From: Candidatus Saccharimonadota bacterium
GTDB lineage: Bacteria; Patescibacteriota; Gracilibacteria; BD1-5; UBA6164
Direction of reading: 5' to 3'
DNA: 32,000 nucleotides
Assembly: GCA_004563595.2 (NCBI GenBank)
Contig: CP042461.1
Location: 720,001-752,000 of the forward strand
Below, piece after piece: positions 2,388-25,343 of the stretch. Position numbers and translations under genes: made by a program. Every line of letters begins with the position of its first letter. Position 1 is the first letter of the stretch. Under the pieces are notes generated by a model. That model searched no databases and was not told where the DNA came from. It saw only the letters and a list, made by a program, of their open reading frames with translations.

Positions 2388-2775
2388 CACAGCAAGGGCA
2401 GGTACCTACCTATTTTTCTTTGAAAATTAGGAGGAAAGTCTGGACATCATGAGGATAATCGTAGAAGATAACTACTTCGGCTTACATATATAATTCATAA
2501 AATGTAAGTACCACTAGTGCCACAGAGACTATACTAATTCTAACTCGTTAGAATGAAAGGTGAAAAGTCATTTGATGTAAGCAATTGCTACAAATGATGC
2601 TATGATGTGAGTTATAGCGTTGGTAAACTGTACGTGATGCAATGGGAATGGTATTTTTATTTTGATACATCCTCTACTGCAATATAAAGATATACTCAGC
2701 TCGAGCATATGGGTGACCATATGCCTAGATAGATTGGTACCTAGATACAGAATCCGGCTTATTACTCTTGCTAAA
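2388..2775 (+). ncRNA. rnpB: RNase P RNA, bacterial type A
   Basis: Universal motifs occur in the correct order: ggaggaaagtctggac (compare GAGGAAAGUCCGGGC), agtgccacagagac, aaggtgaaaag, ggtaaactg, gcctagatagatt and acagaatccggcttat (compare ACAGAACCCGGCUUAU). P1 pairs agcaaggg (2391-2398) with ctcttgct (2765-2772). P2 pairs aggtacc with ggtacct. Confidence 0.9.
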
Positions 2776-2794
2776 TTAAAAATTTTTGGTATAT

Positions 2795-3467: not shown

Positions 3468-4622
3468 ATGTATTGATTTCTTCTATGAAGAGAGTTTAAA
3501 TTATCTCAAGCTGAATTACTCACTGTATTTTCAAGTAATAGTATTGTATATCAAAGTAAAGAGATTTTGATCTTAGATTGATTAAAAAAAGATGATATTC
3601 TAAATACAGCATCTTTTTTATGATGAACGATTAAAATTATTGAAATAGTTGAATCTGAAGAGACAATAGAAAACCTCATACTTGATTGCGTAAATACAGA
3701 TACAAAATTTAAATATGGTCTGAGTCTCTATGGAGAAAAAAAATCACTCAAAGAAATTCTTAATAAGACAAAGAAACTTCTAAAAGAAGGGTGAATTTCA
3801 TCACGTTTCGTAAACAAAGATTTTAACAACCTCAGTTCAGCTCAAATTAAGTGAGAAAATCTTATAAGAAAAGAAACTGACTTTACTTATATTATAACTT
3901 CAAAAGTAAATTATTTCTGAAAATCTATTTGGGTACAGGATATTGATTCATATTCATCTAGGGATTATTCAAAAGAAAGAGATATGCAGGTTGGTATGCT
4001 TCCACCAAAGTTATCACAAATGATGGTGAATTTATCAGAATGAACTACGGTATATGACCCATTTGTATGACTGGGTACTATCCTCATAGAATCTCTTCTT
4101 ATGTGAAATAAAAAAGTATTCTGAAGTGATCTCAGTGAAAAAATGGTAGAAACGTCTACTGCAAATATCAAGAAACTTATTTCTGAAAAATCACTGAATG
4201 CTGACTTGGATATATTTAAGCTCAATGCTAAATTTATAGAAGAATCTGAGTATTTTAATGAATGAGTTGATGCTATTGTTACAGAGTGATATCTTGGTGA
4301 GATAATGACAAAGAAAAACATTGCTCCTGATAGAGTACAAAAACAAAGGGATCCTCTTGAGAAAATATATCAAGCATTCTTTGCCTGACTACAAAAAATT
4401 AACTATTCATGAGCTATTGTAATATCTTTTCCATTTTGGGAAATCAGATGAAAATATTATTATTTTGACGAGGTATATAAAATACTATGAAAATATTGTG
4501 AAGTACTTCCCTACTTCCCTACTGACTATCAAGTCCAAGCTTCAAAGTCATGAAGTCTATTATATAAGAGACCAAGTCAATTAGTTTGAAGAGAAATATT
4601 TAAATTAAGAATGAAAAAATAA
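3468..4622 (+). CDS. SAM-dependent RNA methyltransferase, UPF0020/Trm11-like (384 aa)
   Basis: The table-25 frame is continuous and contains 20 in-frame TGA codons. Motif I is VYDPFVGLGTILIES. The motif IV region is DAIVTEGYLGE, in place of (D/N)PPYG. The substrate cannot be assigned by eye. Confidence 0.65.
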
Positions 4623-4647
4623 AACACCAAAATTGGTGTTTTTTATT
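4621..4647 (+). terminator. rho-independent terminator after the methyltransferase gene
   Basis: Stem aacacca (4623-4629) pairs with tggtgtt (4634-4640) around a 4-nt loop, followed by a tttttt run. Confidence 0.7.
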
Positions 4648-4674
4648 TGACTTAACAAATAAACATTTTATACT
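4647..4674 (+). promoter_or_regulatory. sigma70-like promoter candidate for the 186-aa membrane protein gene
   Basis: TTGACT (4647-4652), a 16-nt spacer, then TATACT (4669-4674). Confidence 0.35.
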
Positions 4675-4766
4675 TTCCCCGCTATACATTTTAGTATAAA
4701 AAAATCGAGTAGCTAAATGACTATAAATCATTTTGTTATTTATATTTGGGAAAAAGGGGAAAGTTA

Positions 4767-5327
4767 ATGTCTAAAACAAAAATATTTTTTCTTGCAATTT
4801 TTATAGTAATTCTTAATGCACTACCTACAATAGGAATTGTAGTTACTAATTACCTTAACGAAGGCTTGATGCCTCATGTTATTGGATTAATAATGTTTGC
4901 GTGGATAATTGCAACATTCGTAATGGCAGAGTATTTAAGAAATCAAGATACCTTAAATACGATTGACATAGCATCTTCTATACTTTCTTTTGGAGCTGGG
5001 TGTACTTTAGTATTCCATTTCTATGATATGGATATATTAGCTTTGGGAACTATTGGCTCAGTTATTGATTATAATAGAGATTTAACTATCTATACTCAAT
5101 TATTTGGTTCATTCATCGATTCAATTTTGATTGGTATTTTTATAAATTTTTATAAAAATATACGAAAAAAACAAGAATACTCCATAAAAAATGAAGCGGT
5201 TGAAAATAAACAAATCATTGCATTAGAAAATACAATAACTGATTTAGAAGATGACAATACAGATCTGAGGGCAGAACTAGAAAAAAGCAATCGGAAAATG
5301 AATAAAGAATCTGCTATTGCTGCATAA
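4767..5327 (+). CDS. hypothetical multi-pass membrane protein with C-terminal coiled coil (186 aa); TGA-free
   Basis: ATG at 4767 lies 6 nt after the SD-like aagggga. There are 4-5 hydrophobic spans (IFFLAIFIVILNALPTIGIVV and others). The acidic/basic heptad-like tail is ENKQIIALENTITDLEDDNTDLRAELEKSNRK. The gene ends in a double TAA TAA stop. All 9 Gly are GGN. Confidence 0.7.
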   Translation: MSKTKIFFLAIFIVILNALPTIGIVVTNYLNEGLMPHVIGLIMFAWIIATFVMAEYLRNQDTLNTIDIASSILSFGAGCTLVFHFYDMDILALGTIGSVIDYNRDLTIYTQLFGSFIDSILIGIFINFYKNIRKKQEYSIKNEAVENKQIIALENTITDLEDDNTDLRAELEKSNRKMNKESAIAA

Positions 5328-5344
5328 TAATTGACTTAACTAAA

Positions 5345-5378
5345 ATAAAGACTGGATTACTCTAGTCTTTATTTTTTA
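5345..5378 (+). terminator. rho-independent terminator
   Basis: Stem ataaagact (5345-5353) pairs with agtctttat (5364-5372), followed by a T-run. Confidence 0.6.
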
Positions 5379-5531
5379 TATTAACTCACCCTTAATCATA
5401 TATCTAACCAACTCCACTAACTCAACATTTACTAAGTCTCATATTTTCACTCAATCTTCATCTACTTTAAAAACACCTCTTTAAAGTATCTCGTTCTTTC
5501 AAAAACAATATAAGTCCTTGAATCATCAACC
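5376..5531 (-). pseudogene. duplicated, frameshifted 3' fragment of miaB (TRAM-domain end)
   Basis: The minus strand reads ...KVDEDGVKIGDLVNVELVELVRYMIKGELI*, against ...[30 protein letters not shown] at the real miaB end (6240-6396). A 1-nt deletion (tttttt to ttttt) breaks the frame upstream. There is no start codon and no upstream gene body. Confidence 0.75.
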
Positions 5532-5550
5532 AGGTAGAATAATTTTTAAC

Positions 5551-5578
5551 TTGACTTTATAGAAAAATATCCTATATT
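5551..5578 (+). promoter_or_regulatory. sigma70-like promoter candidate for the 177-aa membrane protein gene
   Basis: TTGACT (5551-5556), a 16-nt spacer, then TATATT (5573-5578). Confidence 0.4.
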
Positions 5579-5636
5579 TTTAGTACATTTTTTTAGCATT
5601 AGTCTATTATGAAATAAACAGATTAGGAGAAAAACA

Positions 5637-6170
5637 ATGGTACTTGAAATAAAGCAAGAAACAGCTCTCAAAAATACGAGAAGTATTAATTTTCGTGAAT
5701 GGTTAGACCTATTTAAAAAATTGAAGAAACAAGTAACTTCATTAATAGTACACTGCCTACCCATAATTCTTACTTCATTTATTTATATATTTGATATTTT
5801 TTCAAATATAGGAACTGAATGTATGATAATGACACCTGATACATTTTCTACTGCAAGAGCGATGATATTTACAATACTAATACTATGGGTATTTCGTTCA
5901 AGATTCTTTGCAAGTGATTTAAATCCATCACGAAAGAAAGTATTAACAGGTATTATTAGTTCTATTCTTAATTTCGCATTTATAGTCTGCTGTATGACGA
6001 TAGGGTTAATAGATTATCATCTAGATTCTGGCTTAACTCGCCAAGATTATTATAGTATAATTTTTCTGATTTCTATTGCTAGTATGGCAAATATTGGATT
6101 TGTATTAAATACAAATAGAGAACTCTTTCTCGTAAATAAAAATGTTAATAAAAATAGGGTAGTAAACTGA
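5637..6170 (+). CDS. hypothetical 4-TM membrane protein (177 aa if TGA stops; 203 aa to TAA 6246-6248 if TGA=Gly); TGA-free body
   Basis: ATG lies 6 nt after SD aggaga (5625-5630). The basic N-terminus is followed by four hydrophobic spans. All 5 Gly are GGN. The first in-frame TGA (6168-6170) sits exactly where a standard-code stop would be, just before the terminator hairpin. Confidence 0.7.
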   Translation: MVLEIKQETALKNTRSINFREWLDLFKKLKKQVTSLIVHCLPIILTSFIYIFDIFSNIGTECMIMTPDTFSTARAMIFTILILWVFRSRFFASDLNPSRKKVLTGIISSILNFAFIVCCMTIGLIDYHLDSGLTRQDYYSIIFLISIASMANIGFVLNTNRELFLVNKNVNKNRVVN

Positions 6171-6206
6171 AATAATAATGACTCAAAATTAAAAGTCATT
6201 CGTACC

Positions 6207-6236
6207 AAAAAAAGCGTATCATTGATACGCTTTTTT
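6207..6236. terminator. bidirectional rho-independent terminator (gene at 5637 and miaB)
   Basis: Stem aaagcgtatc (6211-6220) pairs with gatacgcttt (6224-6233), flanked by an A-run on one side and a T-run on the other. Confidence 0.7.
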
Positions 6237-6239
6237 AAT

Positions 6240-6396
6240 TTATACTAATTCACCCTTGATAACATATCTATCTAACTCTACTAATTTAACATTTACTAAA
6301 TCTCATACTTTTACGCTTCCCTCTTCTGCTTTAAAAAAGACCTCTTTAAAATTTCTTGTCCTTCAGAAATAATATCAATCCTTAAATCAATTCACA
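6240..6396 (-). repeat. copy B of the roughly 155-bp miaB 3'-end direct repeat (copy A is 5376-5531)
   Basis: By-eye alignment gives about 75-80% identity with one indel. Both copies start right after a terminator hairpin. Confidence 0.75.
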
Positions 6397-7694
6397 AGTA
6401 TTTCTTGAACTGAATCAAGCATTCTCCCATTTCTCTTTATAACATTTTCCAATAATACATCATTCAGTATATGCCATCTCTCTGCTTTTACAGAATCAGG
6501 AACATCGTCAGGATATATCTTACTTGCTATAGTCCCCTTTCTTACTGAATATCTCGCAGTATATGCAAAATCAAACTCACATTCACGGAATGCTTTTATA
6601 GTATCTTGAAACATCTCTTCTGTTTCTCATGAATATCAAACAATAATATCTGTTGATATTGAGAAAAAAGGGTCCTTTGATCTGAGATACTCTACTTGTT
6701 TTTTGAAGTCCTCATATGTATGTCTTCTATTCATTTTCTTTAGTAGAGTATTACTTCCAGATTGAAGAGCAAAATGAAGATAATTACATGAAGAATCTAA
6801 CTTATGATGAGCATCTAAGATATCCTGAGTCATATCATGAGGATTACTTGAAGTAAAACGGATTCTATCTAATCCTTCTAGTTCATTTAAGTCATCAAGA
6901 AGTTTTCTAAATGGTGATTTTCATAATCCATCATTCCACATGGACTTTTCTTCATTCCAAAGTTTTATATTCGATTGTTTTCAATATGAATTTACATTTT
7001 GTCATACAAGACTAATTTCTTTGGTCCCATTTGCAACAAGTTCGCGAGCCTCTGATATGATTTCATCATGTGATCTACTAATTTCTTTCCCTCTTGTATA
7101 TGGGACAATACAAAAGGTACAATAATTATCACATCATGTTTGAACTATGACTGAAGCTGAGTATGGATTTTCTCTAAGTTGCTTAGATTTAAGATAATCA
7201 TCGAACTTATCATCTGATCATATGGCTTCTCAATGAATATGAGTCAGAATAAATGATAAATATTTAACCTCTTCTATTCTCAAAGTAAAATCTAAGCTCT
7301 CTAGTCTTGGAAATAATTTATCATCATTATTAAATATTCCATTTTTATCTGTAATATATTGAATTTTTCTTGCTCTTTTTCTATTTATATCCTCAGCAAG
7401 GTACATTTTATGGAGTCATGTCTTTCTGACCATACAACCTGTAATCCCAGTAATAATTCTTTTAGGATTTCCATCGATTTCTCTCTGAGCATTTTCTTTT
7501 CTGATTTCTTCCGACATACCAAAAACTCTATCTTCTCATTTTTGCCTTACAGAACAGGTATTATATATCACTAAATCCGCATCTCTCCATTCTGATGTTT
7601 TTATAAGACCTGATTGTAACAAGATCATATTGATCTTCTCGCTATCAGCTTTGTTCATCTCACAACCAAATGTCTTTATATAGTATTTTTTCAT
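6240..7694 (-). CDS. miaB: tRNA-2-methylthio-N6-dimethylallyladenosine synthase MiaB (radical SAM methylthiotransferase, 484 aa)
   Basis: N-terminus is [21 protein letters not shown]...[18 protein letters not shown]. The radical-SAM cluster is [19 protein letters not shown]-terminal TRAM domain is present. The 1455-nt frame agrees with track ORFs 6387-6614 and 6636-6833. Confidence 0.9.
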
Positions 7695-24422: not shown

Positions 24423-24824
24423 ATGGAAAATAGAACTTACGTTTGCCCAAATTGTTGATTTAATGATTTAGCATGAACATATAGTGTATGTAGGGTATGT
24501 ATGTGGGAGGAAGATTTAGATTGAAAAATATATCCCCTTATAGCAACTTGACCTAATAATAGCTTGTATGATGAACAACAAAAAATTATAAAAAAATATC
24601 CATTATCGATCAAAAAAACTATTTTTTTTGATAAGTATGAGAATAAAAATTTTATGATAATGCGATCAAGTAGTTGGAAGCCAATAGATATAGGAGATAT
24701 AAAATATAAAGATAAGCCTTTCATTGAAAAATGGTATTATGAAGATTATATAAAATCTATTTATTGAGATGATTACAATCATTTATTTGAAGAAGCTCAA
24801 GAATATAACCCTACTGATTATTAA
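24423..24824 (+). CDS. CPCC-type cysteine-rich zinc-ribbon protein (133 aa), candidate immunity protein 1
   Basis: MENRTYVCPNCGFNDLAGTYSVCRVCMWEEDLDG...GPNNSLYDEQQ matches the CxxC...CxxCxWE(D/E)D signature of the Cysteine-rich CPCC domain. The C-terminal part reads KDKPFIEKWYYEDY...EAQEYNPTDY. Confidence 0.8.
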
Positions 24825-24965: not shown

Positions 24966-25343
24966 ATGAAAACAGAATATTTTATGTGTATATGTTGTTG
25001 ATTTTATACTTTAAAAAACCCTTTTGACTCCGAGGGTATTTGTAAAGTTTGTAAGTGGCAAGATTCAGCTAATGATAAATTTTATCCTTATTCAACATGA
25101 TGAGCAAACATTGATAATTTAGTGAATTCACAAGAAAAATTAGGATTTCTAAATGGTATGAAAGAATTTGATTGATATATTAGAAACCCTAATTGGAAAT
25201 TACTTACTGGAATCAAAATTAAAGATAAACCTTATGTTGAAAAATGGTTTTATAAAGATGTACTAGAAATTTATAACTCTGAATATTACGAAAAAATCTA
25301 TAAAGAAGCCCAAAAATATAACCCTACTGATTATGAAATATAA
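24966..25343 (+). CDS. CPCC-type cysteine-rich zinc-ribbon protein (125 aa), candidate immunity protein 2 (paralog)
   Basis: The N-terminus is MKTEYFMCICCGFYTLKNPFDSEGICKVCKWQDS...GGANIDNLVNSQE. The shared C-terminal part reads KDKPYVEKWFYKDV...EAQKYNPTDYEI. Confidence 0.8.

Follow-up and report, generated by a model that had tools for sequence, protein, structure and literature searches.

The window analyzed here is a 32,000-nucleotide (32-kb) stretch of the genome CP042461 of Candidatus Gracilibacteria bacterium 28_42_T64, an organism that reads TGA as glycine (genetic code 25). The methyltransferase and miaB genes of this window are convergent, and the 1.6 kb that separate them contain two open reading frames (ORFs), ORF_A and ORF_B, which contain no internal TGA codon and which each carry their own signals for transcription and translation. 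We give somewhat better than even chances to the reading that ORF_A and ORF_B are autonomous, moron-like cassettes acquired from a mobile pool in which TGA is a stop codon or which is code-neutral. Under this reading, the gap would hold two independently acquired, self-contained expression cassettes, each consisting of a sigma-70-type promoter, an unstructured leader, a Shine-Dalgarno (SD) sequence, a gene for a membrane protein with about four transmembrane (TM) helices, and an intrinsic terminator. The cassettes would have been written in a genetic system in which TGA means stop or is avoided, and such an origin would account for the absence of internal TGA, the SD sequences, the rare CGN and GGC codons, and the TGA at the end of ORF_B. 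They would have entered a recombination hotspot beside miaB, and a duplicate of the miaB 3' end would remain from the event that placed cassette B.

The entry QFR39263.1 of this bacterium, whose genome is manually curated and closed, matches ORF_A exactly; neither ORF is discussed in the genome paper (Sieber et al. 2019, PMC6851277). An earlier note on this DNA had read the window in code 25, and this is borne out by TGA codons at invariant glycine positions of two window genes, in the P-loop of adenylate kinase and in the Walker A motif of DnaA. With TGA as a sense codon, the 32 kb contains the two cassette ORFs and 21 native genes. When the window is translated with table 11, only 11 ORFs of at least 100 amino acids (aa) survive. 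ORF_A (193/186 aa) and ORF_B (177 aa) are the two longest of these, although not the only long ones, as the note had it: the remaining nine range from 109 to 150 aa, and those that were cross-checked overlap native code-25 genes in the sense or antisense direction.

A region that behaves as if it were in a different genetic code could also be an assembly or binning artifact, in which contaminant standard-code DNA was joined into a Gracilibacteria contig. Such an artifact is hardly credible here. In addition to the curation and closure of the genome (PMC6851277), native code-25 genes lie within 25 to 70 bp of the cassettes at either end, a miaB fragment holding TGA glycine codons is interleaved with them, their guanine-plus-cytosine (GC) content equals that of the host, and several assemblies made independently for other lineages contain equivalent modules in the same context.

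Across the 21 native genes, TGA accounts for 407 of 642 glycine codons (63%), with a range of 40 to 89% per gene; for DedA (23/28) and the methyltransferase (20/26), our counts agree exactly with those made by hand in the note. ORF_A has nine glycine codons and ORF_B has five up to position 6167, and all 14 are GGN, as the note had reported. Zero TGA among 14 glycine codons is an outlier relative to the native window genes (binomial P = 8e-7, Fisher p = 1e-6). The description of both genes as TGA-free holds without qualification for ORF_A; for ORF_B it holds only up to position 6167, since the standard-code stop of this gene is itself TGA and the frame continues in the host code. Because the most TGA-rich native class consists of membrane proteins (ABC transporter 89%, DedA 82%, SecF 75%), the contrast presented by the two ORFs is sharper than the note stated.

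The two ORFs also differ from the native genes in other codons. CGN makes up 6 of 14 arginine codons in ORF_A and ORF_B (43%) compared to 23 of 257 in the native genes (9%, p = 0.0015), and GGC makes up 3 of 14 glycine codons compared to 6 of 235 (p = 0.01). Given that CGN and GGC are the genome's rarest arginine and glycine codons, ORF_A and ORF_B are not simply codon-optimized. Two further origins were considered and rejected: a donor using code 4, because three of three tryptophan codons are TGG and the stop of ORF_B is TGA, and de novo gene birth, because random intergenic ORFs of such length are expected to contain about 3 TGA codons.

These counts bear most directly on the alternative that ORF_A and ORF_B are native, long-resident genes that avoid TGA, as a non-preferred codon, and keep an SD for very high or robust translation. 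The TGA share of glycine codons does track likely expression: frr has 0/5, efp 4/21, and a 223-aa protein at locus L014 of the comparison set 0/21, and ClpP, adk, and dcd stand at about 50% versus 75 to 89% for transporters. A native origin would also agree with the host-like GC content and general codon usage of the two genes, with the inheritance of cassettes of the L017 type (see below) at a fixed position across strains, and with the fact that no donor was found. It is difficult to reconcile, however, with a terminal TGA before a terminator, which a native gene would never have and which is present in ORF_B and in three families from loci L091-L100, or with an enrichment in the rarest arginine and glycine codons, which is the opposite of codon optimization. 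Both proteins are orphans (ORFans) that none of 19 syntenic relatives has, an insertion scar marks the locus, and P for 0/14 is still about 8e-4 when the native gene with the smallest TGA share (0.40) serves as the reference. Taken together, the absence of TGA, the TGA end, the SD sequences, the rare codons, the scars, the hotspot, the ORFan status, and the turnover make import a simpler explanation than native residence, which we consider unlikely, if the best placed of the alternatives.

The expression signals set the two genes apart from their neighbors as clearly as the codons do. The earlier note had described TTGACT-N16-TATAnT promoters, purine-rich SD sequences 6 nt before each ATG, and a hairpin terminator for each gene, and all of these were located (Table 1). 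Within the window, the combination of this promoter with an SD and an intrinsic terminator was found for ORF_A and ORF_B only, and these are also the only SD-led standard-code ORFs of at least 25 aa in its intergenic DNA. No native window gene has a comparable SD tract, in agreement with the note; to the weak tract that it had seen at gltX, a second must be added at the gene for a 183-aa protein. SD leaders are uncommon outside the window as well, with a match of at least 5 nt at 25 of approximately 950 ORFs in 70 Gracilibacteria loci. The motif TTGACT-N16-TATAnT occurs six times in 1.24 Mb (both strands), and four of the six occurrences precede TGA-free membrane ORFs. The leaders of ORF_A and ORF_B showed no significant structure in folding and no known RNA in Rfam. 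We dropped a candidate pairing of ACTTTCCCC (4671-4679) with the SD of ORF_A, given that transcription likely starts downstream of ACTTTCCCC. Structure models of the two proteins (single-sequence AlphaFold2) are all-helical with about four TM helices and are of low confidence.

ORF_A, which ends with tandem TAA TAA stops, lies between the copies of an imperfect 28-nt direct repeat whose 10-nt core, TTGACTTAAC, occurs exactly only twice in the 32 kb. The first copy (4647-4656) is the -35 region of the ORF_A promoter. The second, just past the ORF_A stops, is without a usable -10 element and may mark a recombination junction or be what is left of a displaced promoter.

The stop codon of ORF_B goes beyond the points raised in the note. 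This TGA lies 37 nt 5' of the terminator hairpin. Because code 25 reads TGA as glycine, the frame extends 25 codons past it, passing through the hairpin to a TAA located 10 nt beyond the T run. The NCBI annotation in code 25 gives a protein of 203 aa, and a code-4 translation of the same DNA is also on record. Code-25 bacteria reportedly lack release factor 2 (RF2). In the host, ORF_A would be translated unchanged, and ORF_B would either gain up to 26 residues through decoding of TGA as glycine or yield a non-stop transcript; we infer that terminated ORF_B transcripts would contain no stop codon.

An unrepaired TGA stop and a code-25 stop beyond the terminator, which predicts non-stop transcripts, are features that decaying relics of a degraded mobile element might show, functionless in the host and awaiting deletion, and such relics could well be ORFans beside a pseudogene, as both proteins are beside the miaB fragment. 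We find this decidedly improbable. At 28% GC, it is very unlikely that neutral evolution would have kept frames of 186 and 177 codons free of TAA and TAG, and in both cassettes the promoter, SD, ATG, and terminator are intact and the codon-usage likelihood is gene-like. In addition, in a module family of another lineage, TAA replaces the TGA end at the same codon in locus L092, which suggests adaptation to the host.

A second point that the note had not raised is the miaB fragment between the two cassettes. This pseudo-copy of the miaB 3' end has two frame-shifting indels and keeps four TGA codons at glycine positions. Together with the resident miaB 3' end (6240-6410), it forms a direct repeat that brackets cassette B at a spacing of 864 bp; the fragment's position between the genes therefore gives the locus the form of two tandem units of approximately 864 bp, each composed of a promoter, an ORF, a terminator, and a miaB 3' end. 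Judging from its sequence, the pseudo-copy is an insertion or duplication scar, and an extra miaB fragment was found at none of 69 other loci. Its 30 substitutions relative to the resident gene are distributed 6/6/18 over codon positions 1/2/3, a skew indicating that much of the divergence accrued while the fragment was still coding. The skew would fit either import from the miaB of a related lineage or an old duplication. A Campbell-type single crossover, or unequal recombination with a related Gracilibacterium carrying a different cassette at the site, could have produced the miaB duplication. As a separate observation, the miaB match in about 16 Gracilibacteria lineages (L055-L071, e.g., L056 10001-12034) is split at residues ~255-260 by an extra ~0.45-0.7 kb, a candidate inserted domain, intein, or intron; the window miaB does not have this segment.

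The gene order dcd-miaB-[gap]-methyltransferase-adk-dnaA is kept in 19 Gracilibacteria genomes, and the gap between miaB and the methyltransferase in these syntenic relatives ranges from 25 bp to 5.9 kb, with unrelated, TGA-rich genes inside it. None of the 19 has a homolog of ORF_A or ORF_B (tblastn, code 25), so that presence or absence at the locus, a check that the note had proposed, gives the patchy distribution characteristic of horizontal acquisition. A metagenome scan with the methyltransferase as query returned no close relatives. A protein of 84 to 91 aa (MIKLIKLLASLLMIVVFYVALVKV...) with one N-terminal hydrophobic helix is conserved directly after miaB at L023, L013, L050, L053, L062, and L063; its gene contains TGA codons and is therefore native. 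The window genome lacks this protein and has the cassettes in the same position.

Homology searches returned neither relatives nor a function for the two proteins. In a word-indexed search of 5.8 billion proteins, ORF_A and ORF_B matched only themselves, and a full HMMER search of ORF_B against 1.84 billion representatives found itself and one spurious repeat protein. Nothing significant was found in Pfam, PHROGs, or PADLOC, and IMG/VR scans and INPHARED tblastn were negative. The note had hoped to read the donor's genetic code from the best homologs, which is not feasible with proteins that are ORFans in every library searched. The similarity between ORF_A and ORF_B is nonsignificant (BLASTP E = 0.09-0.35), and neither resembles the cassette proteins at L017 or L039; given this mutual dissimilarity, the class is defined by architecture rather than by protein family. 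Cassette proteins of the L017 and L100 types were likewise negative in Pfam, PHROGs, IMG/VR, and INPHARED.

Modules of the same architecture recur in other Gracilibacteria, which also takes the analysis beyond the note. At locus L017, from another Gracilibacterium, a hairpin is followed by the extended promoter motif TTGACTTA-N12-TTTTATACT, which is shared with cassette A, by the SD context TAGGAGAAAAA, which is the same as that of ORF_B, and by a gene for a 129-aa, 4-TM protein with 0 TGA. The next gene encodes a 145-aa TM protein, also with 0 TGA. Around Band_7 and UvrD, L017 and three further strains (L080-L082) have five small genes that are SD-led and TGA-free. Nucleotide identity between the strains is 97-100% in the flanks of these loci and 73-93% in the cassette zones; at the amino acid level, UvrD and Band_7 reach 99-100%, compared to 66-77% for the 129-aa protein. 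Cassette divergence beside near-identical flanks indicates that the L017-type modules are hypervariable yet open, SD-led, and TGA-free. The flanking genes show almost no switching between TGA and GGN (1 mixed column of 53). A further module at L039 has a TTGACT-N16-TATAAT promoter, a GGAGG SD, an 81-aa TM protein (0/11 glycine codons as TGA), and a GC-rich terminator.

The oral HOT-871-like genomes (L091, L092, L093, L099, and L100) carry tandem arrays of compact modules next to dnaA. These are built from a TTGACA-N17-TATAAT promoter, an AAAGGAG SD, and an ORF of 30-115 aa for a lipoprotein or TM protein without internal TGA, with a TGA stop 8-12 nt 5' of the terminator hairpin. All 10 of the 10 oral-lineage ORFs with exactly one TGA place it in the last 3-13% of the code-25 frame, and in one family, the L092 ortholog has TAA at exactly the codon that is the TGA stop in the others. 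The terminal position of TGA and the TAA of the L092 ortholog indicate that the oral modules were written with TGA as stop, like ORF_B. Such TGA-terminated modules belong to three independent families in L091-L100. The TGA/TAA ortholog pair is consistent with later repair. In L100, copies of the 5' end of the neighboring 746-aa gene, forming a 339-bp direct repeat of 92% identity (2546-2883 and 4120-4453), stand on both sides of a cassette pair, a scar of the same type as the miaB fragment. Between the L100 repeats, there are further tiny SD-led TM ORFs (31-32 aa) with TGA just before their terminators.

The L017-type modules, open, SD-led, and free of TGA at 66-77% identity while UvrD and Band_7 remain at 99-100%, invite the explanation that selection keeps a code-neutral pool free of TGA, either in a phage or element shuttling with standard-code hosts or in defense or exclusion genes that are proof against a code switch, remaining translatable when an invader brings back termination at TGA or depletes tRNA-Gly(UCA). 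Code-11-compatible phages are predicted to infect Gracilibacteria (PMC10746230), and in favor of this explanation are also the TAA TAA end of ORF_A and the TGA TAA end of a 47-aa gene in L082. The note's suggestion of genes that stay legible under either code keeps some probability, but it is weakened for ORF_B, which, like most of the oral modules, ends in TGA alone and is not code-neutral. Moreover, the sampled divergence is too short to separate selection from recency, with 1 mixed column among 53 in the flanks, and the account is entirely inferential in that its phage-encoded RF2 and its second host are both hypothetical. We rate selection for code neutrality as less probable again than native residence.

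Acquisition from a TGA-is-stop or code-neutral pool remains the reading that we prefer. The most plausible source would be a Gracilibacteria-specific mobile pool, especially code-11-compatible phages: 34 of 38 predicted Gracilibacteria phages are without in-frame TGA (Liu et al. 2023, PMC10746230), so a suitable, poorly sampled, lineage-specific donor pool is known to exist. By analogy with morons and given the hypervariability of the related modules, the cassettes would most likely serve the envelope in a strain-specific way, for example in exclusion, immunity, or defense. The standard-code donor proposed in the note is supported as regards a source in which TGA is stop, to which the ORF_B end, the rare codons, the scar, the hotspot, and the TGA ends of the modules in other code-25 genomes all point, but it lacks a donor homolog. 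The anatomy of the cassettes, the codon counts, the scar, the hotspot, and the recurrence of the module class are observations, whereas donor, mode of integration, expression, and function belong to the interpretation.

Several observations weigh against acquisition. No homolog of either protein was found in the standard-code organism, phage, or plasmid collections searched, and no integrase, transposase, or phage gene was found in the 32 kb among the code-25 translations, part of which were compared with Pfam. The note had proposed a comparison of composition with the genome background; GC content, GC content at third codon positions, and overall non-glycine codon usage are host-like (z = -0.6 and -1.4). 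The miaB fragment is nearest to the resident miaB (79% identity versus 72-78% for other lineages), so it could derive from an old in-situ duplication. Liu et al. 2023 (PMC10746230) found prophages integrated in these hosts to be rich in TGA. The AlphaFold2 models are weak, with predicted local distance difference test (pLDDT) scores of 61 for ORF_A and 58 for ORF_B and a predicted template modeling score (pTM) of ~0.3. Finally, the wider-class statistics include non-independent orthologs. Among 723 ORFs of at least 60 aa from loci in which TGA makes up at least 40% of glycine codons, the presence of an SD is strongly associated with zero TGA (15/42 versus 30/681, p = 2e-9), which speaks in favor of acquisition, but the figure is inflated by these orthologs.

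Table 1. Features of the cassette locus and native genes of the 32-kb window (window coordinates)
Feature	Position	Strand	Description	Basis or remark
Hairpin terminator	4621-4642	both	Bidirectional; end of methyltransferase gene; left boundary of the putatively inserted region	Terminator scan
Cassette A promoter	4647-4674	+	TTGACT-N16-TATACT	
Cassette A SD	4754-4760	+	aagggga, 6 nt 5' of ORF_A ATG	Unpaired in predicted leader fold
ORF_A	4767-5327	+	186 aa; ~4 TM helices and long C-terminal helix (~106-185)	
Second exact TTGACTTAAC copy	5331-5340	+		First copy 4647-4656
Cassette A terminator	5342-5375	+	Intrinsic; 15-bp stem, then T run	Folding z-score -6.7
miaB 3' pseudo-copy	5376-5540	-	Last ~53 codons	79% identical to 6240-6390
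Cassette B promoter	5551-5578	+	TTGACT-N16-TATATT	
Cassette B SD	5625-5630	+	aggaga, 6 nt 5' of ORF_B ATG	
ORF_B, standard code	5637-6170	+	177 aa; charged N-terminal segment and 4 TM helices	Stop TGA 6168-6170
ORF_B code-25 read-through tail	6171-6248	+	25 more sense codons and TAA 6246-6248	
Cassette B terminator	6208-6236	+	Intrinsic; 13-bp stem, then T run	Folding z-score -6.1
miaB, native	6240-7694	-	Radical SAM, UPF0004, and TRAM domains	14/30 glycine codons TGA
Native genes	window		dnaA, adk, methyltransferase, miaB, dcd, gltX, clpP, nadK	Code-25 translation
Native genes, continued	window		ispA, uppS, ABC transporter, secF, dedA	Code-25 translation
Native genes, continued	window		Three very large secreted proteins	Code-25 translation
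Native genes, continued	window		Five small: 191, 127, and 183 aa without Pfam match, and CPCC pair	

The neighbors of the cassettes are dnaA, the RNase P RNA, adk, the methyltransferase, miaB, dcd, and gltX. The RNase P RNA is of bacterial class A and lies between dnaA and adk (2390-2777, plus strand; 160 bits, E = 4.5e-50); in related loci, several spurious "TGA-free" ORFs are antisense to a region of this type. Elsewhere in the window, two paralogous small cysteine-rich proteins of the CPCC family (24423-24824 and 24966-25343, plus strand; PF14206, E = 9e-8 and 2.5e-9) are encoded directly 3' of the gene for a 1883-aa secreted S8-peptidase protein, whose last 290 aa are without a Pfam match. 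This layout recalls that of polymorphic toxins plus immunity genes. Among the other loci, two further ORFs lack TGA. The gene for the 223-aa protein in L014 (13606-14277, minus strand), which is secreted, has 0/21 glycine codons as TGA against a locus share of 57% (p = 2e-8) and has a sigma-70-like promoter and no SD; either high expression of a native gene or a further import could account for this. A 183-aa ORF in L091 (14107-14658, plus strand) has 0/15 glycine codons as TGA at a locus share of 64%, and it also has no SD.

Stop-codon reassignment is often called a genetic firewall, and the cassettes suggest that this firewall is one-way. Standard-code genes could enter a genome in which TGA is glycine and keep working there, and TGA usage would then serve as a built-in marker of foreignness. 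A gene that ends in TGA would show the state just after crossing, with forced read-through into its own terminator. If the module class proves general, it would supply a simple sequence rule for recognizing the flexible genome of uncultivated recoded bacteria, a set of candidate genes for envelope functions and for interactions with phages and hosts, and a chromosomal counterpart to the code-11-compatible phages of these hosts. A wider proposal, which we put forward with considerable doubt, is that code-25 Gracilibacteria keep a standard-code compartment of the flexible genome, in which strains exchange modules for envelope proteins at hotspots and selection keeps TGA out of them. Such selection may act on code-neutral elements that cross the code boundary or on translatability when an invader disturbs the decoding of TGA; in both cases, the modules would be exclusion or defense genes proof against a code switch.

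The cassettes share features with several known systems. Like flexible genomic islands, which lie between conserved core genes and are exchanged through homologous recombination, they have conserved flanks (miaB and the methyltransferase), content that differs wholly between relatives, and partial duplications of flanking genes at the junctions; unlike islands, they are very small (0.7-0.9 kb, one gene), are without an integrase or tRNA target, and differ in coding style. Integron cassettes are also small single-gene units arranged in tandem at one site, but these are usually promoterless, end in attC, and lie beside intI, whereas each unit here has its own promoter and terminator. No tyrosine recombinase or integrase was apparent among the translated genes of the window, in which no search for attC was made. 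Holins are small proteins with 1-4 TM helices and a charged C terminus; ORF_A and ORF_B have about four predicted hydrophobic helices and, at 177-186 aa, are larger than most holins. Their neighbors are a methyltransferase and miaB rather than an endolysin, and they match no holin family in PHROGs or Pfam.

The code-11-compatible phages of Gracilibacteria and Absconditabacteria (Liu et al. 2023, PMC10746230) resemble the cassettes in having no in-frame TGA and being readable in either code. Several different stops stand close together at the gene ends of these phages; ORF_A has two stops in tandem, TAA TAA, and ORF_B has TGA alone, with the next stop 26 codons on. The phages differ in that they are whole genomes tied to their hosts by spacers from clustered regularly interspaced short palindromic repeats (CRISPR) and in that they reportedly avoid TGA as a stop (PMC10746230). 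ORF_A and ORF_B have no similarity to phage genomes in IMG/VR, INPHARED, or PHROGs.

The closest likeness in architecture is to phage morons. Morons are said to be autonomous promoter-ORF-terminator units located between the genes of lambdoid prophages. The cassettes agree with them in placing one ORF, equipped with a sigma-70 promoter and an intrinsic terminator of its own, between unrelated genes, in a sequence signature unlike that of their neighbors, and in the nature of the products, which in morons are often small, strain-variable membrane proteins or lipoproteins. They differ in lying between chromosomal housekeeping genes rather than in a prophage, with no recognizable phage gene in the 32 kb, and their signature consists of TGA usage and SD sequences rather than GC content. 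Overall, ORF_A and ORF_B resemble morons in architecture, but we do not classify them as morons because they lie outside a prophage.

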